Shown here piece after piece: positions 2,254 through 14,646 of a stretch of DNA of 14,646 bases. The stretch lies in the IMG/VR virus record IMGVR_UViG_2718218127_000001; one strand, 5' to 3'. The first letter of the stretch is position 1. The number at the start of each line of letters is the position of its first letter. The position numbers and the translations under genes are program-made. Source of the stretch: a virus. Taxonomy: Duplodnaviria; Heunggongvirae; Uroviricota; Caudoviricetes. The notes beneath the pieces were generated by a model. The model saw nothing but the letters and a program-made list of their open reading frames with translations. It was not told the DNA's origin and searched no databases.

Positions 2254-2279
2254 ACGCCCCGTGCGGGCGTTTTGCTTTT
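2254..2279 (+). terminator. putative rho-independent terminator on the plus strand
   Basis: Stem ACGCCC, loop CGTGC, stem GGGCGT, then TTTGCTTTT. The opposite strand has no U-tract. Confidence 0.35.
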
Positions 2280-2889
2280 ACAAAGTCAGGCCAATGCCTC
2301 TGGCTGCTTTCCCCGCCTTACGCTCAACCATGCCCGTGATTCTATCTACTACCGGACTGAATGCCTGCCAGTAAGCCACCTCCATTGCTGACAACTCTGC
2401 CCGCTTCCTGTCAAACGTAGCCCAGCGCATCCCCTTTGGTTTTGGGAACATGCGAATGTCATTAAACAGATTATTGGCAAGGTCATTGCTTCCCCATATC
2501 GCGCATCGCTGCTGGCGTATCTTCATTCGCATCCTGTCCAGTCTGTCGGCGCTCTGGCTTTTATAGTGGAGTTTCCAGCACGCCCGGCAGCCAATATCTT
2601 TCTTGCCGATATACAGCTTTGCAGCCCGTTTCATACAGTGGGGACAAACGTACCATTCCCGGACGCCATACCCGGCTTGTGTGGTCGTGGTTCTGATTGC
2701 CCGTGTAACGCCGTTGATTGTCATGGCGTAGCTGTCGGCTTGCCGGAAGGTATACAACGTTCCGCTTTCGGTCTGGGTATAAAGCTGCGTCCCCGGTTCG
2801 GCGTCCGCCAGCCTGCTACGCATGTTCGCAAGGAATGGCAACCCTATACGGGGCAGGTCGGTGATATAGCTGCGCGTTCTGTCTCTCAC
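2278..2889 (-). CDS. hypothetical Cys4 zinc-ribbon protein, 203 aa
   Basis: Track ORF. The start is GTG, preceded by a perfect AGGAGG 7 nt upstream. Contains CPHC-x14-CRAC (C-x2-C ... C-x2-C). Confidence 0.55.
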   Translation of the reverse strand: MRDRTRSYITDLPRIGLPFLANMRSRLADAEPGTQLYTQTESGTLYTFRQADSYAMTINGVTRAIRTTTTQAGYGVREWYVCPHCMKRAAKLYIGKKDIGCRACWKLHYKSQSADRLDRMRMKIRQQRCAIWGSNDLANNLFNDIRMFPKPKGMRWATFDRKRAELSAMEVAYWQAFSPVVDRITGMVERKAGKAARGIGLTL

Positions 2890-3143: not shown

Positions 3144-3521
3144 CTAACATGCGCCGTTTTTTTTAACCCTTCGCAGATCCCGCCTTGCTTGCATTGAAAC
3201 GGATCTCGCTAAACTCAGCTCAAGCCGTGCGATTCTGTCGGCATGTAGCCCCATGAGTCCGTTAATCAATGTCATCTCGCGCCATTCTTCTGTTCCCGGC
3301 GTCGGATTAGTCGCCAGTAATAGCCCGTATCTCTCAGCCATCATGAGGTTTCTTGCACGATTTCGCACCAGCGGAGAAAGCGCATCTTCTCCCTCAAACG
3401 GGAAGAATGCCCGCCTACTGCGTTCGCCATGTTTGACGGCATTAGTATTGCCCAACGGTGCGCCTGCGCCTTTCCGCTTGCCACCCCATCCGGATCTTGA
3501 TTGTTGGCTATTTTTTTTCAT
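3144..3521 (-). CDS. hypothetical basic protein, 125 aa; possible small-terminase-like or packaging-redirecting protein
   Basis: Track ORF with ATG start. The N-terminus GKRKGAGAPLGNTNAVKHG resembles motifs I associate with small terminase-type DNA-binding proteins; this is from memory and unverified. Confidence 0.5.
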   Translation of the reverse strand: MKKNSQQSRSGWGGKRKGAGAPLGNTNAVKHGERSRRAFFPFEGEDALSPLVRNRARNLMMAERYGLLLATNPTPGTEEWREMTLINGLMGLHADRIARLELSLARSVSMQARRDLRRVKKNGAC

Positions 3522-3735: not shown

Positions 3736-4086
3736 TCACGGCACAGACGAGTACCAGTAAAAGCCTGTTAGCCCGGCATCGCAGCGCTCACGATTAAGCA
3801 CACGTGGCGGGTTTTCTCTGGTCATCAACTCAAGCAAGGCATTGCTTCCCTGCGTCTCCAGTCGGTATTGCCTGTCGGTAGTGGTAATGGCATCCGGCAA
3901 TAACTTTATGGCGGCCTGGCTAAAGTCTCGCGGTGCGCCGTAAAATTGCGCATCAACAATATGAACCACATCGCCGTTAATCGTTGTCCGATAACGGTCT
4001 GGCTGTATAGTAAAGCCCCCACAATGGATAGCAGATAGTGCCGGTGCCGATGAGATCAGGACGGCTGCCAGAATGTATGGCTTCAT
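3736..4086 (-). CDS. hypothetical secreted protein, 116 aa
   Basis: Track ORF with ATG start and GGTGGGTGA upstream. The N-terminus MKPYILAAVLISSAPALSA looks like a Sec signal peptide. Two Cys residues. Its start overlaps the upstream stop as ATGA. Confidence 0.55.
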   Translation of the reverse strand: MKPYILAAVLISSAPALSAIHCGGFTIQPDRYRTTINGDVVHIVDAQFYGAPRDFSQAAIKLLPDAITTTDRQYRLETQGSNALLELMTRENPPRVLNRERCDAGLTGFYWYSSVP

Positions 4087-4724
4087 TCTTCACCCACCAA
4101 TTCATCCAGTTCAGCCAGCGTCATAGGCTTTGGTACAGGCTTGTCAATATCACCCATAATGCGCTGGAAGTTTCTGGCAGGCATATGGTTACGGTTCTCC
4201 AGTATTTTCGCCAGCGCGATAACATCCCACCATTTCAGGGCAATCAGCGCCTCAGCACGGGAAAGTGATATTCTCTGTATATCAGCATCCTCTCCACCAG
4301 CCACCCGGTATACCTCTGATAAATCACGAACATTTTTCATGTCTGCTTTCCCGGACGTTTCCATCAGTGCGTTAATATCATCCCCCGTATAGCGTGATTG
4401 CGCGACGATACCAGCCAGAGAGATAACCATATCCCGGCATACCTGGTCTATCAGACGTAATCTGGCGTCATCGTTCGAGAGGGTGTAAGACTTAACCTCA
4501 GCCACATTCCGTGGATAGTTGGCGTGCCATACCGCGACGGCTCCACACTCATCAACATCGCCGCTAAGGTAGGTTTTTGCCACTCGGTTATTACCCGATA
4601 ACGCAATTTCTACCTCCTGTATGCCGAAAAACCATGCGGCTATCGCATGACCTGCTTCGTGTATTGCGAGATGTCTGGGCCAGCGATAGCTGCCTAACTC
4701 GATAATGATGGGTTGCGTACTCAT
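4083..4724 (-). CDS. putative zinc metallopeptidase with an HEAGH motif (FtsH/M41-like active site), about 213 aa, no AAA+ or transmembrane region
   Basis: Track ORF 4083..4781. I prefer the internal ATG (MSTQPI...) because the longer form overlaps the SSB-like gene by 47 nt and the internal start has GAGAGGGAA upstream. The motif IHEAGHAIAAW is identical over seven residues to the FtsH zinc-binding signature. Confidence 0.5.
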   Translation of the reverse strand: MSTQPIIIELGSYRWPRHLAIHEAGHAIAAWFFGIQEVEIALSGNNRVAKTYLSGDVDECGAVAVWHANYPRNVAEVKSYTLSNDDARLRLIDQVCRDMVISLAGIVAQSRYTGDDINALMETSGKADMKNVRDLSEVYRVAGGEDADIQRISLSRAEALIALKWWDVIALAKILENRNHMPARNFQRIMGDIDKPVPKPMTLAELDELVGEE

Positions 4725-4734
4725 ATCTTCCCTC

Positions 4735-5196
4735 TCAGAATGGCGTTTCATCGTCGAATGGTGGGCGTTGGTCAAAATCATCAGGGGTATTATATAACTC
4801 CCATCCCGGCGCGGATTGTGTTGTGTGGCCCCTGCTGGCTCCGCTTGCTTTGACTGATTCGGCCCGCTTCCCGCCGGGGCGTACCGTTCTGGCGCTGATC
4901 ACGCTGTCGGCTACTACCTGATAACCTTGCTGTGTACCGCCATCCTTGCCCGTCCACTGATTGATCTGCATCGCTCCGGCAACACTGACTAAATCGCCTT
5001 TAACGTGTCCTGCCAGTGCGTCGGCCTGTTTGCCGAATGCCACCACGCCCAGCCAGAAAGTAACCTCTCCGCCCTCTGCTGTATGGCAGGGCAGTGCCAC
5101 CGCTAACCGTCCCATTGCCATGCTTGTACCGTTCGTTGTGGTACGGGTCTGGGGATCTGCCACCAGCCGCCCGTATGCTGAAATTTGTGCTGTCAT
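4735..5196 (-). CDS. single-stranded DNA-binding protein (SSB-like OB fold with acidic C-terminal tail), 153 aa
   Basis: Track ORF with ATG start and GAGGAA upstream. The pattern W..VVAFGK.A......KG..V.V.G.....W....G......VV parallels the E. coli SSB core, and the C-terminus ...PPFDDETPF resembles the SSB ...DFDDDIPF tail. Confidence 0.65.
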   Translation of the reverse strand: MTAQISAYGRLVADPQTRTTTNGTSMAMGRLAVALPCHTAEGGEVTFWLGVVAFGKQADALAGHVKGDLVSVAGAMQINQWTGKDGGTQQGYQVVADSVISARTVRPGGKRAESVKASGASRGHTTQSAPGWELYNTPDDFDQRPPFDDETPF

Positions 5197-5495
5197 AGAT
5201 ATTTCCTCATGTAGTCACTACCTCCGGGGATAATTTTCATTTCTTCCCTTAAAGGCCACTGCTCCGCCATTGCTGCGGTCGAGTGATTCCCGTCATCACG
5301 TCCGGCCTGTGCTGCCGTCCAGTGTGTTGCATATTCTGTAAATCCAATTTCTGCTGGCTGCCTCATCCAGTGGGCGATCATCCTCAAGGTCATTTGCAGG
5401 CTTTGGGTGTCGCCCTGTAATGCGCGTTTGTCAGTAAACCCCTTCAATGCTTCACGCTCCTGATAGGTCATTTTCTGGCTGGTTTCTGTATTCAT
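5193..5495 (-). CDS. hypothetical protein, 100 aa; first gene after the origin
   Basis: Track ORF with ATG start and GAGGTG 5 nt upstream. Its stop overlaps the SSB-like start as ATGA. Confidence 0.5.
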   Translation of the reverse strand: MNTETSQKMTYQEREALKGFTDKRALQGDTQSLQMTLRMIAHWMRQPAEIGFTEYATHWTAAQAGRDDGNHSTAAMAEQWPLREEMKIIPGGSDYMRKYL

Positions 5496-5548
5496 TGCCC
5501 ACCTCGTTATAAGCTACCCCCCCCATAGAATCTTTTTGGGGGTGTAAT

Positions 5549-5800
5549 ATCCCTACCAATCCCTACTAACTGGCTCAGGCCACGAATGGCAAGGCTTTCA
5601 GACTGGTAGACATTCAATTTTGTTGCCCTACATAACCCTACTTATCCCTACTAAATCACTTCAACGGCATTTTACTGCCTGTTTTATTTGGTAGGGATAA
5701 GTAGGGATAAGTAGGGATAAAAATATATATCCCTACCTAGTTTAAAGCCTTGCTACGTCTGGCCTCGTCTCGTTTTTAGTAGGGCAGTAGGGATAAGTGC
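5549..5800. repeat. iteron-type replication origin
   Basis: At least 11 copies of a TAGGGATAAG / CCCTAC core with 10-bp phasing: inverted-orientation copies near 5549-5566 and 5626-5651, three perfect tandem GTAGGGATAA units at 5691-5720, an AT-rich stretch AAAATATATAT, then further copies near 5731 and 5779-5796. Lies immediately 3' of the primase gene. Confidence 0.7.
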
Positions 5801-5813
5801 CGCCGTAAAAGTT

Positions 5814-8255
5814 TCAATCATCACTCTGCCCGCTCTCCACACCGTAAGCGCGTGGCATGAACTCCTCAGCCTTCTCGTTATAGCCAACGTTGGTTTGCGC
5901 TCTGCCGTTAATGCTTCTCGTCAGGTAGCTGGCTCGGTACTCTTTTGCTGCTGATTTTATGGCGCGTGAAAACTTATTGACGGAAAGCGGTTTACCCAAA
6001 CCGTGATACTCCATAAACGCCAGATAAAGATGATAAAGATACGTCCTCGGCTCTGGCTGGCCTGCCCATGTACCTCCGCCCATCATCATGCCTTTGGGTT
6101 CGTTCATGAAAAAAAGCGCCGCACACATATCGACAACCGGATCCGTGCCGCGTTTAACCTCTAGCGCCTCCTGCGAATCGCGCTGCTCTAGTAATAGTGC
6201 CTTTGCTTTGTTCTGGTCGGCAAAGGTGGTTAGCAGGTGGCGGATAATCACCGGGATTTCTCGCCTGATTTTTGCGGTTAAATCCGGGTCTTTGTCTGCG
6301 TCTGATACCGGGTTATTAAACGGGAATATCACGCGGCGGCGGGCAATGCCCCCGTTTCGCTCCGTGAATGTCATTGGCTCGTTATTGGTTGCCATAACAA
6401 CGGCATTTATCACGGTTGTGAACTGCTTTTCATATTTCCCATCAATCTCTACCGGATCGCCGCCCGTAATGGCTTTAATCCCCGCACCCTCTCCAACGTA
6501 GCGGGTCTGGTCAGGCATAATAATCAGGCTTTTCCCTACGAACTGCGCCCGTCCCCGTGCGGTGTCCAGCGTCATCATGCTACCGCTGGCGGTGTTGTGT
6601 TCACCTGCCAGCGTGGTTGCTATGCTGCTGAATACGGATTTCCCACTGCCGCCCTCGCCAGTTATCTCAATGAATAGCTGCCAGTCGTGACGCTTCGCCA
6701 GCACCATAAACAAGGCTGCTTTGATACGCTCGGCCTTATGATGGTCGCCAGCCGTTGCATGATTCAGCCAACGGGTAAAATTGGGGGCGCTGGTGGAAAT
6801 ATTCTCCCCCGGCGCTGGCGGGGTGTAGGTGATCCCATTGTGGTTCATCAGCCAGTTACCCGGCGAATGGGCGGAAAACGTCTGCGTAGCGAGGTCATAA
6901 ACGCCGTTATCAAAACCAATCAGATCCCCGCTCCGCTCACCAATTACCGGTATTTGCAGCTTCATGGTTGCGACAACCGATTTAATCCCTTTTTCGGTGT
7001 AGTGGGCTTCGTGCTCGTCGAAAATTGCCACCATAACCCTTTCTAATTCGCTGTCTGGTAGCTTCACCCATACGCCAGATTCGTAGCAGTAAACAGCGCC
7101 ACTATCAGGGTTGACCGCCAACATATCCCAGCGAGATGAAAGCAACCGCGCTTTCTGGCTGGCTGCCATTTGTGCAATATCTCCGACTTCGGCTTTACGG
7201 CGGGATTTACCGCCCACAATGGCCTGTAGTTGTGGTTTCACGGCTTCCCCCTGAATCTGGTACATCGAATCGTTAAACGCAGCCGTAGCGACTTCCAGCC
7301 CGTTTTGCTGGCGGTAGTCGTCCCAGTCGGCTTTGTAGTCTGTCGGCGGCAGCGCCACCCAGCCAGCCACGGATAAGGCGGCTTTCTCTGCGGCATCTTT
7401 GCCCGTGTTCGCCTGTTCGTCCTGCTGGTGGTCGTTATCTGCGGCAATGATAATTTGCGACTGCGGGTGTTTCCGGCGCATTACTCCGGCAACGTGGATC
7501 AGGTTCCCGGCGTCAATTGCCGCCACTGTAAGCGCGTCCGGGCGCATCAGGTGAACGGACAGGGCCGTCGCCAGCCCCTCGGCAATTAATACGCTCTGCG
7601 GCTGTTCTGGTGCGTTTACGGCGTGATATGCCCCGCGCTTTGCTGAACCTGTCAGGAGTCGCTTCTCTCCCTGCGGTGTAATGGTTTGCGCTGCTGCCAC
7701 TGCGCCGGATTCGTCCACCAGCTCCAGCAATAACGAACCATCCGGCATAACCGGATAGTTAAACCCGGTCAGCCCTTTTGATTGCAGGTAATCAGATTCT
7801 CCCTGTGTGGCACTCTGGCGCATTCCGGCATACAGACGGGCAAACGTAGCCCTTCGCTGCTCTGCATCCTCTGCTGCCTGTTTCTGGCGCTCCTGCTCAC
7901 GCTGCTGGCGGTCAGCTTCCAGTTGCTCTCTTCTATGGCTCGCTGCCACCGGGTCGGTTTGCGCTGCCCGGTAATCAATACCCAGCACATCAGCGGCAAG
8001 CTGTGCCGCCTCCGTAGTGTCGCAGTTGTTCACCTTCTTAATCAGGTCTAAACCGTCACCAGCGCCACACTGATTGCAGATAAAGCTACCGCGCCCGTTG
8101 TCGTCGAATCTGAAACGGTCTTTTCCACCACATGCAGGGCATGGAGAATGGCGGCGCGATGAATCAGGCACGTCGATAGACAATCCAGCCAGCACATAAG
8201 GCCAGCGCCCGGCGGCGGCACTGGTCACTTCGCGGATAAGGTCGATATTACGCAT
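5814..8255 (-). CDS. P4-alpha-like bifunctional DNA primase/helicase, 813 aa
   Basis: Track ORF with ATG start. N-terminal zinc ribbon CPACGGKDRFRFDD...FICNQCGAGDG, a central TOPRIM-like region, and a C-terminal NTPase with Walker A GEGGSGKS. Confidence 0.88.
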   Translation of the reverse strand: MRNIDLIREVTSAAAGRWPYVLAGLSIDVPDSSRRHSPCPACGGKDRFRFDDNGRGSFICNQCGAGDGLDLIKKVNNCDTTEAAQLAADVLGIDYRAAQTDPVAASHRREQLEADRQQREQERQKQAAEDAEQRRATFARLYAGMRQSATQGESDYLQSKGLTGFNYPVMPDGSLLLELVDESGAVAAAQTITPQGEKRLLTGSAKRGAYHAVNAPEQPQSVLIAEGLATALSVHLMRPDALTVAAIDAGNLIHVAGVMRRKHPQSQIIIAADNDHQQDEQANTGKDAAEKAALSVAGWVALPPTDYKADWDDYRQQNGLEVATAAFNDSMYQIQGEAVKPQLQAIVGGKSRRKAEVGDIAQMAASQKARLLSSRWDMLAVNPDSGAVYCYESGVWVKLPDSELERVMVAIFDEHEAHYTEKGIKSVVATMKLQIPVIGERSGDLIGFDNGVYDLATQTFSAHSPGNWLMNHNGITYTPPAPGENISTSAPNFTRWLNHATAGDHHKAERIKAALFMVLAKRHDWQLFIEITGEGGSGKSVFSSIATTLAGEHNTASGSMMTLDTARGRAQFVGKSLIIMPDQTRYVGEGAGIKAITGGDPVEIDGKYEKQFTTVINAVVMATNNEPMTFTERNGGIARRRVIFPFNNPVSDADKDPDLTAKIRREIPVIIRHLLTTFADQNKAKALLLEQRDSQEALEVKRGTDPVVDMCAALFFMNEPKGMMMGGGTWAGQPEPRTYLYHLYLAFMEYHGLGKPLSVNKFSRAIKSAAKEYRASYLTRSINGRAQTNVGYNEKAEEFMPRAYGVESGQSDD

Positions 8256-8589
8256 GGTTGCCTCCTGCCACGGTCGCGCCCATGTCTTTAACCATGCTTT
8301 GCCATATCTCGCGCCCGACGTCAGTCAATCCGTCCTTAGTGACGCAACGCTCAAGAAGCTCGACCCCCACGGTTTCCCACTGCGGGTAGGACACTTTCAT
8401 GGCTGCCAGTGTGTAGCTATCGATCAGGCTGCGAACGCCTTTTACTCCATTGACGATTTCCACACGGACGGCGAGGCCGTCCGCATCAACCATGAAATAG
8501 TCCCCGCCGCTGGTGGAGGTAATGTGGTTATACAGTGCCGACGCATATTTATTAGCCAGCGCATTCAGTCGGAAATTTTTAGTAATCAT
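8248..8589 (-). CDS. hypothetical protein, 113 aa
   Basis: Track ORF with ATG start and GAGGGG upstream. Overlaps the primase start by 8 nt. Confidence 0.55.
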   Translation of the reverse strand: MITKNFRLNALANKYASALYNHITSTSGGDYFMVDADGLAVRVEIVNGVKGVRSLIDSYTLAAMKVSYPQWETVGVELLERCVTKDGLTDVGREIWQSMVKDMGATVAGGNHA

Positions 8590-8597
8590 GTCGCCCC

Positions 8598-9224
8598 TCA
8601 GTGCGGCAGCGGCATTTCAGGCCAGCCGTTTTCATCCAGTTCAGCTATAAAGCTGTTGTGAAGTTCAGCAAGCGTTTCACGTCCGAACGGGGTAAGCTCG
8701 CCGCGCTCCGTATCCAGCATCGCCTTATAAAACACAATGGCTTTTTCCGTACCCTGTTCGACGCCGTATCGCTCAATCATTGCGCCCTCGATGTTGTTCG
8801 CCATCGCCAGCCGTTCAGCAAACGGGTAAATCACCATGCCCGCATTACCATTGGAGTAAATCGCCACCTGCGATGTTGTGCCGTCAGCCTCCGTGACGGA
8901 GGTTGTGCCGTTTTCGCGCTTCATTTCAGAAACGAACTTCGCAGCAATCAGCCAGCGCCACATAGTGACGTTATGCTGCGCGGTAAAGTCGAACCAGCCA
9001 CGCGCCCCGCCATCAGCAACGGCAAAATGAATGGCGTAGCCGATATCTGGCGTATCGTCGTACTCTCCCGCATCCAGACGGCTTACAGCGCTCTCATAGG
9101 TGATAATGGCTACATGCTCATACATCCCGGCATCATTGCGGGTCATGATGTTTACGCCGTGCGGTGTGGCTTCGGCGTGTAATAAGTCGGCATTTCCCGA
9201 TTTAATGGTCGGTGCGTTGCTCAT
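8598..9224 (-). CDS. hypothetical protein, 208 aa
   Basis: Track ORF with ATG start overlapping the upstream stop (ATGA). No domain recognised. Confidence 0.55.
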   Translation of the reverse strand: MSNAPTIKSGNADLLHAEATPHGVNIMTRNDAGMYEHVAIITYESAVSRLDAGEYDDTPDIGYAIHFAVADGGARGWFDFTAQHNVTMWRWLIAAKFVSEMKRENGTTSVTEADGTTSQVAIYSNGNAGMVIYPFAERLAMANNIEGAMIERYGVEQGTEKAIVFYKAMLDTERGELTPFGRETLAELHNSFIAELDENGWPEMPLPH

Positions 9225-9484
9225 GCGCTGCCCTCCGCATCAATTCTGGCTATATCGACAATCGTCAGGACTTTACTAAGCCAGCAATACACGATTTCGG
9301 CCTGTTCATCGTTTAGTTGAGTGGCTAAATCGGTCATAACGTGAGCCAGCCCATTGCGGGCGCGGGTCATGCGTTCTGCCGTTCGGTCTGCCAGCGTAAA
9401 ATCATCCGGGTAAGCCTGCTCGCGGGATAACATCGCTTCGGCTTCCAGCTCTGCCGGGTGGCGATAGATGGTAGTTATGTTCAT
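9221..9484 (-). CDS. hypothetical acidic protein, 87 aa
   Basis: Track ORF, part of the coupled operon. Confidence 0.45.
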   Translation of the reverse strand: MNITTIYRHPAELEAEAMLSREQAYPDDFTLADRTAERMTRARNGLAHVMTDLATQLNDEQAEIVYCWLSKVLTIVDIARIDAEGSA

Positions 9485-9795
9485 TTGCCCGCCCTCCCTT
9501 TGGCTTCTTTTTCACTGATTGAGCGCAAGAATGCGGCGTTTGCAGCGCTATCGTTCAGCGCCCGCGCAACTTCTCCGATATGTCCCAGCATTGCGCCTAA
9601 TCTGTACATATCAGCCCTAACGCTTTCCGCCGGGTAGTCATCGCTATTAGCCGCCCAGAACATGAGGCTACCGATGGCACTTACGCCCAGCATTAAATCA
9701 TTCACGGCATCACTGGCGCGGCTCTCAATTCCGTTCAGATCATCAGGTGTACAACCATCAAAGTCGCAGGACACTAAATCGTTATACAGGCTCAT
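9481..9795 (-). CDS. hypothetical protein, 104 aa
   Basis: Track ORF with ATG start overlapping the upstream stop (ATGA). Confidence 0.45.
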   Translation of the reverse strand: MSLYNDLVSCDFDGCTPDDLNGIESRASDAVNDLMLGVSAIGSLMFWAANSDDYPAESVRADMYRLGAMLGHIGEVARALNDSAANAAFLRSISEKEAKGRAGK

Positions 9796-9971
9796 GCTGC
9801 CACCTCACGAACGCGGGTAATCTGGATGTGGGAAAGGCGTTCATTTCTGGCCTGATTTAGCGCCTCAGCTTTGGCGCTGATCGCGCTGCGGGCGTCAACG
9901 ATATAAACGAACTCGACTAATTCGCCGCTCCGGGCGGTGGCGCATCCTGCAACACGGAAGTAATTAAGCAT
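9792..9971 (-). CDS. hypothetical small protein, about 59 aa from the internal ATG
   Basis: Track ORF 9792..10001 begins with TTG. The internal ATG (MLNYF...) has AGGGGG upstream and overlaps the preceding stop by 8 nt. Confidence 0.35.
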   Translation of the reverse strand: MLNYFRVAGCATARSGELVEFVYIVDARSAISAKAEALNQARNERLSHIQITRVREVAA

Positions 9972-10155
9972 GTGCGCCCCCTGTGCGAATACGTCCGGCA
10001 AAAAAGCAAACGTGATCCCGCGCCAGAATGCGGCGGGCTTCCTGCTCAGTCTCTGCGGCGATATGGTGAATTTTGGCGGTAATTGTCGGCATATCGCGGC
10101 GAACTGCTGCGATAATCCAGATAAATTGCGGTTTTTGGGTAGGGGTAGTAGCCAT
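9964..10155 (-). CDS. hypothetical small protein, 63 aa; first gene of the replication-module operon
   Basis: C-terminal part of the track's 250-aa GTG ORF. It has an ATG with a strong AAGGAGG 8 nt upstream (MATTPTQKPQ...). Confidence 0.45.
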   Translation of the reverse strand: MATTPTQKPQFIWIIAAVRRDMPTITAKIHHIAAETEQEARRILARDHVCFFAGRIRTGGAHA

Positions 10156-11675: not shown

Positions 11676-12110
11676 TTAGGCGGCGGTGAGATTGTCCGGG
11701 TATAGGTTGAGAATGTCGGCAATTTCAGGCTGAGAAAGTCCCTGATAGCCGCCAGCGTCGGCGTTATGGTTCACAAGCCGAATAACTTTCAGAACGTCAC
11801 CGCGCCCGGTAAAGCGATAGCGTAAATGTGACCCTATCCCGTCGGGGTTCTTTTCGTCTATACGCTCAAGCTGAATATCAAGCCTGCGCTCTAACTCACT
11901 GGCGTAGTTCCTTCCAGACGAAAGGCGGCAATAACGCAGAATGTCGTTTTCTGTCCATCCCTCTACGCCAGTACGCAGCATATAGACGCGGGCGCGGTGT
12001 TTCTTTGGGGTTCGCTTAGGTACTTGTACCGGGCTGGTGGTCGGCGTAATATCAGACGTGCGAATATCTGAGTTAGCCGCCTGCTGTACGGGGCGGTTTT
12101 TCTTTTTCAT
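11676..12110 (-). CDS. hypothetical basic protein, 144 aa
   Basis: Track ORF. Its ATG overlaps the alpA stop (TAATG), so it is translationally coupled to alpA. Confidence 0.5.
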   Translation of the reverse strand: MKKKNRPVQQAANSDIRTSDITPTTSPVQVPKRTPKKHRARVYMLRTGVEGWTENDILRYCRLSSGRNYASELERRLDIQLERIDEKNPDGIGSHLRYRFTGRGDVLKVIRLVNHNADAGGYQGLSQPEIADILNLYPDNLTAA

Positions 12111-12313
12111 TACGCCACCTTTCCCCGGCGCTCCGCCAGCCAGTTGTGAATATCAGCCGCATCAAAGGCGGTAATCTTCTCGCCCAGCTTTACCGGACGT
12201 GGTAGTGAACCGTTTCTTACTTTACGGTCGATGGTGGATACACTAACGCCCAGCAATTCAGCCAGGCGAAAGCGTCTGATATAGCCTTTTGTAGGGATAG
12301 TGTCGATGTTCAT
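12110..12313 (-). CDS. alpA: AlpA-family (Vis/excisionase-like) HTH transcriptional regulator, 67 aa
   Basis: Track ORF with ATG start and AAGAGG upstream. The helix-turn-helix LAELLGVSVSTIDRKVRNG and its small size and position next to a P4-type integrase are typical of AlpA/Vis. Confidence 0.72.
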   Translation of the reverse strand: MNIDTIPTKGYIRRFRLAELLGVSVSTIDRKVRNGSLPRPVKLGEKITAFDAADIHNWLAERRGKVA

Positions 12314-13386: not shown

Positions 13387-14646
13387 TTACTTCGCCTTTC
13401 TCAGCGGTGTAACGTTGTATTCCTGCCCCTGTTCCAGTGCCACCAGCAATCCCGCCCACTGTGTTAACGCGGCCCGGCGTTCATCAAAGTATTGGTGGCG
13501 GTTATAGATACCCTCCACGCCTTTAATTTTGTGGTTGAGGCATCTTTCAGCCACTACGGGATCAACGCCCAGCGCGGCTAAATGGGTGCGGGCTGTGCGC
13601 CGGAAGTCGTGAATAGTGAAATTCGGCACGTCCGGCATTTCAGCGCGAACCTTAGCCAGTGCTACGGGTAAAGTGCTTTCCTGAATATGTGGGATCATGC
13701 GGTTTTGCATCTTTCTGGCTGGCAGTACCCATGCGCTGTTGCATGAGAACGTTTTAAGCTCTCTCAGCCATTCGACGGCTGGCGGTGCTAATGGAATGTC
13801 TATAGCGTCGCCGTTTTTGCTGCGTTCCTCTGGCAAGCGCCATACGGCTTTATCAAAATCGAACTCCTCCCAGCGGGCGGCGCATAACTCCATTTTGCGG
13901 ACGCATAACGCTAACAGTAATTTGAACGTGATTTCGTTCTGGCGACTGAATCCCTTAGCCGTGCGCATGGCTTTGAATAGCTGGATTAACTCATCGCGGG
14001 TTAACCAGCGGTCACGGGCAACTTCTTTCCCTCCAGCGTCGGCAACCTCAAAGGCTGAACACGGGTTAATCTCCAGTGCGTGCCGCTTAATGCCGTAGTC
14101 AAATATGCGGCGTGTCCAGCGCAGAACGTCCGTTGCTATGGTCGGCGCTCCACGGTCAACAATACCTTTCAGCATGTCATCGATATGGCGCGGCTTCACG
14201 TCCTCCACCTTCATGCTGCCAATGCAGGGGTTTATATCTTTGTCGATACGGCGGCGGAGTATATCGGGGTGCTTCCAGCGCGGAAGGATCTGACGCTCAA
14301 AGTATTCAGCGGCAAGCTCTGAAACGCGCATAGCGTTCTTCTCTGCTTCCATCTTCGCCAGTGCTTCGGTTTTGCGCCTCTGCTTCTCTCCTGCAACGTC
14401 ATAGCCCAGCGCAACGCGAGCCGATAGCTCTTTGGCTGTCTCTCTGGCCTTTGATAGTGATAGCTCGGCATATGAGCCAATCAGCATGGCGCGGGGTTTC
14501 CCTGCGAATTTATAGCGGAATCGCCAGACGGGGGTCTGGTAGTTTTCGCGGTATGAAAGATAAAGCCCGTTACCGTCAGAGCGTCCCTCGAATCGCTCCC
14601 CGGCCTTTATCCATGCGCGGATCTGCATGTCTGTGAGTTTTGGCAT
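13387..14646 (-). CDS. int: P4-type tyrosine integrase, 419 aa; start codon at the window edge
   Basis: Track ORF with ATG at 14644-14646. N-terminal arm-binding-like region (GLYLSYRENYQTPVWRFRYKF) and a C-terminal catalytic region with the HDFRRT...H..Y tyrosine-recombinase pattern. Confidence 0.9.
   Translation of the reverse strand: MPKLTDMQIRAWIKAGERFEGRSDGNGLYLSYRENYQTPVWRFRYKFAGKPRAMLIGSYAELSLSKARETAKELSARVALGYDVAGEKQRRKTEALAKMEAEKNAMRVSELAAEYFERQILPRWKHPDILRRRIDKDINPCIGSMKVEDVKPRHIDDMLKGIVDRGAPTIATDVLRWTRRIFDYGIKRHALEINPCSAFEVADAGGKEVARDRWLTRDELIQLFKAMRTAKGFSRQNEITFKLLLALCVRKMELCAARWEEFDFDKAVWRLPEERSKNGDAIDIPLAPPAVEWLRELKTFSCNSAWVLPARKMQNRMIPHIQESTLPVALAKVRAEMPDVPNFTIHDFRRTARTHLAALGVDPVVAERCLNHKIKGVEGIYNRHQYFDERRAALTQWAGLLVALEQGQEYNVTPLRKAK

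Follow-up and report, generated by a model that had tools for sequence, protein, structure and literature searches.

The locus described here raises the question of what a phage satellite does with a small protein that carries the HEAGH zinc-site motif of FtsH, encoded in a string of four genes directly past the replication origin. It lies in IMG/VR record IMGVR_UViG_2718218127_000001 (Caudoviricetes), a stretch of 14,646 nucleotides (nt) that was analysed whole, is referred to as the window, and provides the positions used throughout. The chromosome of Escherichia coli S43 (NZ_CP010237.1) is a 100% match to the window, and there the element is an insertion of ~13 kb between yicC and dinD with nearly all of its genes on the minus strand; it is a satellite of the phage-inducible chromosomal island (PICI) type. 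Going away from the origin, the four genes encode a protein of 100 amino acids (aa), here orf100, a single-stranded DNA-binding protein (SSB), the 213-aa HEAGH protein and an exported protein of 116 aa. On the evidence of sequence profiles and a structural model the HEAGH protein is a complete, standalone peptidase domain of the M41 (FtsH-type) family, and comparison with other islands reveals four swappable cassettes and not an obligate module.

M41 peptidases are known as the proteolytic component of AAA+ machines anchored in membranes (FtsH, m-AAA and i-AAA), and the island protein (4083-4724, minus strand) has no signal peptide, no transmembrane segment and no AAA+ module. Searches with the single sequence are near blank: the Pfam matches were M50B (E 0.011) and M41 (E 0.15), neither extending beyond the motif, and nothing above threshold was found in Pfam, NCBIfam, PHROGs, PADLOC or, by phmmer, the PDB, nor is there a curated Pfam or NCBIfam model for the family. 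A word-indexed search of 5.8 billion proteins gave 23 relatives, one of which is named (UniRef "Peptidase M41 domain-containing protein"), and searching 1.84 billion representatives exhaustively by profile gave 64 clusters at E <= 1e-3, mostly of 180-240 aa; full-length homologues at 58-98% identity occur in several genera of the Enterobacterales. Two alignments were built, A1 of the close homologues and A2 with distant representatives added (34 sequences, mean column identity 22%). The A1 profile had no match in the PDB, FtsH becoming significant only with A2, the profile of which matches FtsH, AFG3L2 and YME1 chains exclusively (best E 2.8e-10), with one YME1 match covering positions 10-188. 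Placement by profile fails for the single sequence, which stays below the Pfam M41 gathering score, and succeeds for the family.

Structure prediction points the same way, as an AlphaFold2 model (predicted local distance difference score, pLDDT, 80.6; predicted template modelling score, pTM, 0.81) has 32 FtsH-family chains as its top Foldseek matches, at 13-21% identity in the structural alignments, and so has the fold of an M41 protease domain. The domain occupies roughly residues 15-195, with no AAA match above noise, and the two architectural hallmarks of M41 proteins, the AAA+ module and the N-terminal membrane anchor, are both absent. With hhalign, A2 and a single FtsH sequence could be aligned in the C-terminal helices only, so the register of the motifs was taken from a MAFFT add-alignment, in which (with a manually entered FtsH sequence) H22, E23 and H26 of the HEAGH motif (4647-4661, minus strand) fall on H417, E418 and H421, LAGIVAQ falls on GGRLAEE, and D128 of SGKAD (4341-4343, minus strand) falls on D495 of TGASND, so that Asp128 is the predicted third zinc ligand. 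Among the A2 sequences, which reach down to ~20% identity, E23, A24, H26, G105, A108, D128 and A172 are invariant and H22 and G25 are kept in at least 90%, so that conservation takes in HEAGH, the AGxxA(E/Q) helix and the putative ligand Asp. The first-pass annotation, which had noted the motif of the FtsH zinc site without AAA+ domain or anchor, is borne out by profile, fold and motif register alike; its statement that HEAGH is the only recognisable feature gives way to an M41 domain that takes up the whole protein, and this is best regarded as an M41 variant with a new architecture. In the literature nothing relevant was found on standalone M41 domains in satellites or phages, or on PICIs with an SSB or a protease.

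All four annotated minus-strand open reading frames (ORFs) exist; the SSB scores above the Pfam gathering threshold, and the peptidase and the 116-aa protein both have homologues. The span first given to the string, 4083-5495, contains three genes only, and with the 116-aa gene at 3736-4086 the whole unit runs from 3736 to 5495. Coupling through overlapping stops and starts had been claimed for the entire string and is found at two of its three junctions, where an ATGA is shared (orf100/SSB, 5193-5196; peptidase/116-aa protein, 4083-4086). At the third, a 10-nt spacer with a Shine-Dalgarno sequence, GAGGGAAGAT, lies between the stop of the SSB gene (4735-4737) and the ATG of the peptidase gene (4722-4724). 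A longer peptidase ORF of 232 aa, from 4781, was rejected as the start: 17 of 17 homologues begin at the methionine of MST, MSE or MDT, and the Prokaryotic Genome Annotation Pipeline (PGAP) also has 213 aa. Chance ORFs and a chance HEXXH motif were likewise rejected, on cross-genus conservation and the fold evidence.

The peptidase family is small and, among the contexts seen, confined to satellites, islands, and integrated or viral-binned elements. The full-length contexts inspected were all islands with int, AlpA and primase, other islands next to an integrase, or viral-binned elements that encode a capsid, and two more contexts were short contigs of small co-oriented genes; tblastn found no relatives in 50,697 phage records and none in 72,556 plasmid records, and a scan of genome contigs gave 2 loci only. 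The capsid-encoding elements (IMG/VR contigs L029-L035, ~5000-10000) have a sister M41 variant between the primase and origin and a head module of phrog_563, phrog_264 (the major head protein) and phrog_302, that is, the capsid is encoded by the element itself. In sister islands PGAP already gives the name "Peptidase M41 family protein" to relatives of 29% identity (WP_234630892.1 and WP_069723210.1; E 3e-14), and annotation pipelines know part of the family in this way, by name only. This sister lineage is the commoner one in E. coli, at 53 against 28 of 5426 complete genomes.

Several further observations concern the relatives. Directly 5' of the peptidase gene, the sister lineage has a gene for a ~57-aa protein (KPNVKPVLLS...IHEIARGLM...; L020 6875-7048, L022 6268-6444, L029 ~5780-5962), the stop of which overlaps the peptidase start or lies within ~35 nt of it; by eye this protein is ribbon-helix-helix-like, a likeness that no Pfam match supports. 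Two loci carry labels from outside the Enterobacterales, L002 (Chryseobacterium sp., peptidase 94% identical) and L004 (Pseudomonas graminis, 72%), and both have neighbours of enterobacterial type; the labels could reflect contamination, mislabelling or a wide host range. Three weak members of 402-478 aa (P0067, P0068 and P0073; E ~3e-4) are longer proteins in which the M41-like domain is C-terminal; the N-terminal part contains hydrophobic segments and looks, by eye, like regions of lambda-type tail-assembly proteins, and they could be fusions or artefacts of gene calling.

The gene upstream of the peptidase (4735-5196, minus strand) encodes 153 aa, with an OB (oligonucleotide/oligosaccharide-binding) fold at residues ~4-100, a short non-globular linker and an acidic C-terminal tip. 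It had been annotated as SSB-like, and as an OB-fold protein of this family it is well supported: Pfam SSB (PF00436) scores 54.7 bits against a cut-off of 26, phrog_44 matches at E 3e-30, and the 26 solved structures that match are all SSBs (best E 1.2e-10; E. coli SSB, 1eqq, E 1e-5), with TIGR00621 slightly below its cut-off (50.9 against 53.95). Aligned pairwise with E. coli SSB, the sequence of which was entered manually, it is 26% identical from end to end, with FDDETPF over FDDDIPF; the equivalents of Trp54, Phe60 and Trp88 are retained and those of Trp40 and His55 are not, the position of His55, a determinant of the E. coli SSB homotetramer, being Leu in this pairwise alignment. Mobile elements often supply their own SSB, and sequence comparison identifies this protein as a genuine SSB-family member, an ordinary SSB of a mobile element.

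The C-terminal tip of E. coli SSB is the motif on which partner proteins dock, and the island tip PPFDDETPF (4738-4764, minus strand) is the counterpart of E. coli DFDDDIPF. An acidic stretch with a final (A/T)PF also ends the island SSBs of Buttiauxella, Klebsiella, Dickeya, Pectobacterium and the record labelled Pseudomonas graminis, in six island SSBs the terminal PF is invariant, and in those of L002-L009 it is conserved together with the acidic residues before it. The idea that the tail mimics that of the host protein is not upheld, because the protein is homologous to E. coli SSB from end to end and the ...D-x-PF tip is kept in five other genera; the tip is homologous and canonical, and on the precedent of other SSBs it would be expected to bind those host proteins that the host SSB binds.

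The last gene of the string (3736-4086, minus strand) encodes the 116-aa protein, with a signal peptide, two conserved cysteines and a predicted beta-barrel of eight strands. The signal peptide has Lys2, then a hydrophobic core and, ahead of IHC, a site that resembles A-x-A, with cleavage predicted past ALSA, at residue 19. Its 17 homologues come from Enterobacterales or from records labelled otherwise; C22 and C102 are kept across them and the signal is conserved in character and not in sequence, in agreement with the signal peptide first annotated. No family match was found in Pfam, NCBIfam or PADLOC, and phrog_3443, a PHROG of no assigned function, matches weakly (E 0.0035). The protein is best described as a small barrel that is exported and probably disulfide-bonded. 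It is paired with the peptidase in three divergent lineages, with peptidases at 72% identity or more, 33% (L012) and 32% (Salmonella, L022), and the stop/start overlap is present every time the pair occurs. Where the 116-aa gene is missing the next gene is often that of a lipoprotein of 356-378 aa with a clear lipobox, as in Dickeya and L013, and an exported protein 3' of the peptidase is consequently a recurrent pattern. These lipoprotein genes lie at 8718-9788 in L005, 8727-9797 in L007 and 6734-7870 in L013; a lipobox (LGAC or ITGC) was read in L005 and L013, the Pectobacterium gene in L007 was recognised by size and position only, and there is no family match. A 203-aa protein encoded in the window (2278-2889, minus strand), zinc-ribbon-like with CPHC...CRAC and without family match, has homologues of 50-80% identity encoded next after the 116-aa protein in L002-L004 and L012, and peptidase, exported protein and 203-aa protein may be a recurring trio.

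It had been proposed that the four genes form one module, and for this the four proteins were tabulated over 23 fetched loci and further islands were read. Sister islands at the same yicC/dinD site split the SSB from the peptidase. The layout of the window, orf100-SSB-M41-116aa, is that of the 28 complete genomes already mentioned; L024 has orf100-SSB-PerC, L025 has SSB-PerC, and the 53 genomes of the sister lineage, which include the enteropathogenic E. coli (EPEC) strain E2348/69, have orf93-57aa-M41 variant-PerC together with a 3' remnant of the SSB gene. Since each occurs without the other among these layouts, SSB and peptidase are separable cassettes, and a test of gene neighbourhood found no obligate co-occurrence of the four, the only recurring pairs being SSB with peptidase, in one clade, and peptidase with the 116-aa protein in the three lineages above. 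The SSB remnant, 31 codons that are 94% identical, lies between the M41 variant and PerC (L020 6005-6097, L021 6012-6104) and shows that one cassette was replaced by another at the orf100/SSB junction; in these two islands an M41 gene has been regained or retained at the slot through non-orthologous replacement.

Within one clade the association is close. Peptidase relatives at 63% identity or more, from Escherichia, Buttiauxella, Klebsiella, Dickeya, Pectobacterium and the records labelled "Chryseobacterium" and "Pseudomonas graminis", always have an SSB gene zero to two genes upstream, and the pairing holds even where the primase is of the other (DUF927) type, whereas distant peptidases (23-33% identity) follow primase and origin without an SSB. 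The first gene past the origin, orf100 (5193-5495, minus strand; Shine-Dalgarno GAGGTGG), has matches that are all sub-threshold (DUF5551, E 0.012; phrog_4935, E 2.6e-4); an 87-aa stretch of it is identical in sister island L020, where there is no SSB, and it is missing from most other islands, and so tracks this type of primase and origin and not the SSB or the peptidase. The origin itself is presumed to be an iteron array found by repeat search and reading of the sequence, with at least 11 copies of a 10-bp repeat of the GTAGGGATAA type, in both orientations, at 5547-5798. As the array is directly 3' of the primase gene, the description of the string as post-origin in the first-pass annotation is apt.

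The reading we favour, and hold with moderate confidence as a whole, is that of a post-origin PICI segment of four cassettes, with a genuine SSB, an ATP-independent M41 endopeptidase directed at a host or helper-phage protein, and a periplasmic barrel. After helper-triggered induction the post-origin genes would probably be read through from the primase operon; the OB domain of the SSB would coat the single-stranded DNA of the island during replication and its tip would recruit host partners. The peptidase would be soluble and cytoplasmic, with an FtsH-type zinc site of His22, Glu23, His26 and Asp128, and as it has no unfoldase we would expect a zinc endopeptidase that acts without ATP and is limited to peptides or intrinsically disordered segments. 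Its substrate would be a host or helper-phage protein, the cleavage of which benefits the satellite after induction. The first-pass annotation had suggested, as possible roles, that the SSB tail recruits or titrates SSB partners of host or helper phage and that the free peptidase processes proteins of either. The 116-aa protein, translationally coupled to the peptidase, would form a disulfide-bonded small beta-barrel in the periplasm, and there may be a functional link between the peptidase and its neighbours. Characterised PICIs keep packaging functions 3' of primase and origin (PMC11773190); given this position of the peptidase gene and its retention in very different satellites, a role in the satellite life cycle is likelier than one as pure cargo, and the keeping of the M41 slot across mosaics argues for the same.

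Four observations weigh against this reading. The single-sequence score for PF01434 is 12.3 bits against 29.9, and in the motif region only, so that membership of M41 is carried by the family profile and the fold. In the peptidase P0016 of Pectobacterium brasiliense (L007 and L008, two assemblies) a Gln replaces the first zinc-binding His (AIQEAGH); this allele may be inactive, and catalysis may consequently be dispensable in some hosts. Many sister islands, L024 and L025 among them, have no M41 gene at all, so that it is not essential for this island family. Finally, the operon structure is read from gene spacing: a promoter and terminator scan gave no minus-strand site, with totals for both strands not above those of shuffled sequence.

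Three rival explanations were each scored below the favoured reading. The peptidase could belong to a cargo cassette of the defence, abortive-infection or toxin-antitoxin-like type, perhaps with the exported protein as a second component, and once triggered would cleave a host or phage protein and so block competing phages. Its patchy, cassette-like presence among islands at one chromosomal site would fit, as would the Panacea-domain protein near by in one sister island, and the ~57-aa protein tightly coupled 5' of it in other lineages recalls the pairing of a small DNA-binding protein with a zinc peptidase. PADLOC, however, matches none of the four proteins, the window has no small antitoxin-like partner, and the gene is directly past the origin in the main co-oriented string and not at the variable end of the island; satellites that encode a capsid retain it as well, between replication and head genes, and we consider cargo of this kind unlikely. 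It had also been suggested that the HEXXH protein could belong to the ImmA/IrrE peptidases, and in the broader form of this idea a peptidase of another family would cut a repressor, or the DNA-binding protein encoded upstream, and so switch the life cycle of satellite or helper. The gene directly 5' always encodes some nucleic-acid-binding protein, be it the SSB (window and Klebsiella), the ribbon-helix-helix-looking ~57-aa protein (E. coli variant and Salmonella), a protein with a weak helix-turn-helix (HTH) match (Dickeya) or a ProQ/FinO protein (Pectobacterium), and a peptidase without unfoldase needs an exposed linker, which such regulators have. Membership of M78 itself was rejected, as there is no PF06114 match, the fold is that of M41 and no HTH repressor gene adjoins the peptidase in the window; Gram-negative PICIs of this type are moreover described as activated by AlpA, and not as controlled by a cleavable repressor (PMC6092414). 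An ImmA-like role is to our mind distinctly improbable.

In the third rival the protein would not be a catalyst but a decoy of FtsH, which co-assembles or competes with the host FtsH ring or its substrates (such as CII and CIII of lambdoid phages) and shifts the helper between lysis and lysogeny. Lambdoid phages are known to be subject to control at FtsH (PMC1838920), the similarity in fold to the FtsH protease domain extends to its C-terminal helices, and P0016 is a natural variant without the first zinc-binding His. Against this, very divergent members show no change at the catalytic Glu, the second His or the predicted ligand Asp, and at least 90% of them keep the first His, as purifying selection on catalysis predicts, and co-assembly is doubtful at 13-21% identity and with the segment that corresponds to FtsH residues ~505-545 missing; we give the decoy very little weight. 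Returning to the favoured reading of an active endopeptidase, a more specific form of it would have the free M41 domain trim hub proteins that bind nucleic acids of their disordered linker or their docking tip; the target here would be the SSB of host or helper, which the differently linked SSB of the island would then replace ("replace-and-destroy"), a takeover of the recruitment hub of the replisome. By the same logic the targets in other lineages would be of the type of protein encoded upstream, ~57-aa, HTH or ProQ/FinO. This tail clipping is a long shot.

What makes the peptidase of wider concern is that a soluble, unfoldase-free M41 protein keeps a full zinc site and is maintained by selection in satellites and mobile islands of Enterobacterales and other bacteria, which raises the questions of what an M41 site cuts without its ATPase and whether the free domain still forms a ring. 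PICIs usually hold helper-interference genes between their replication and packaging functions, and the position of the peptidase there makes it a candidate for a new satellite-helper or satellite-host interaction. E. coli is a tractable system, in which its role can be addressed by point mutants.

The satellite setting assumed in the first-pass annotation is borne out by the remaining gene content and the iterons. The order of the island is int, AlpA-like regulator, AntA/B, Icd-like protein, P4-family primase and iteron origin, with a tyrosine integrase at 13387-14646, an AlpA-type HTH protein at 12110-12313 and an 813-aa P4-family primase/helicase at 5814-8255, all on the minus strand; the last is named as such by PGAP and has Pfam Zn_Ribbon_Prim, Toprim_3, D5_N, DUF5906 and Pox_D5 matches and TIGR01613 at 111 bits. 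Other minus-strand genes encode an AntA/AntB antirepressor-family protein, a DUF4222 protein, the Icd-like protein and several small proteins. No tail, lysis or capsid genes were found in the window, with zero structural-gene matches. This int/AlpA/primase constellation is that of Gram-negative PICIs (PMC6092414, PMC11773190), and co-oriented int, alpA and primase/origin, a size in the range of ~10-15 kb, the lack of tail and lysis genes and a specific chromosomal site are all found here; a search for direct attachment-site (att) repeats of at least 14 nt at the island ends gave none.

The dinD-proximal end looks like a variable cargo region. It has a plus-strand 119-aa gene of no assigned function (1269-1628) and a minus-strand fragment (1621-1833) that PGAP has as the pseudogene "IS1096 element passenger TnpR family protein", and sister islands have at this end a "pRiA4b ORF-3 family" gene, joined in one of them by the Panacea-domain gene. 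A 125-aa protein (3144-3521, minus strand) begins with GGKRKGAGAPLGNTNAVKHG and has a weak match to the N-terminus of phage small terminases (NF040601, E 6.6e-4; phrog_1889, E 2.6e-3); its counterparts in Klebsiella and Dickeya islands share 94% and 73% identity with it, a similar protein is encoded 5' of the head genes of L029, and it may be a TerS-derived packaging factor. Compared with solved structures, which should include RppC, as possible Rpp-type redirectors of packaging, the 125-aa protein and a 144-aa island protein had no match. Two adjoining minus-strand genes, 9221-9484 (87 aa) and 9481-9795 (104 aa), are called "nicotinic acetylcholine receptor subunit beta" and "ubiquinol-cytochrome C reductase" in RefSeq, names that are almost certainly annotation artefacts.

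How far, then, do these proteins resemble known systems? The 116-aa protein has no sequence similarity to the periplasmic lysozyme inhibitors PliC and MliC. The SSB shares with that of E. coli the OB fold, the equivalents of Trp54, Phe60 and Trp88, a disordered linker and an acidic PF tip, but is shorter (153 against 178 aa), has a linker of ~40 residues without Gly/Gln-rich repeats, and ends in DDETPF where the E. coli protein has DDDIPF. The capsid-encoding elements L029-L035 are like capsid-forming satellites in that they encode capsid proteins of their own. The PGAP-named proteins WP_234630892.1 and WP_069723210.1 are like the peptidase of the window in their slot past primase and origin, their yicC/dinD site, their size and their motifs, but belong to the other lineage, with the ~57-aa protein and not an SSB on the 5' side and PerC and not an exported protein on the 3' side. 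With ImmA/IrrE (M78, COG2856) the peptidase has in common that it is a small soluble HEXXH zinc peptidase of a mobile element with neighbouring genes for nucleic-acid-binding proteins, but it differs in both sequence and fold and, in the window, in having no HTH repressor next to it. The closest comparison is that with FtsH, AFG3L2 and YME1, with which it shares the order HEAGHA, (G/A)GxxAE and (S/T)Gxx(x)D with the zinc-ligand Asp, and homologous C-terminal helices; it differs from them as a soluble protein of 213 aa without AAA+ ATPase or transmembrane and periplasmic N-terminal region, in having ~25 residues more from the HEXXH helix to that of AGxxA(E/Q), in lacking the segment that corresponds to FtsH ~505-545, in a score below the Pfam M41 gathering threshold, and in being encoded by a satellite and not by a housekeeping gene.

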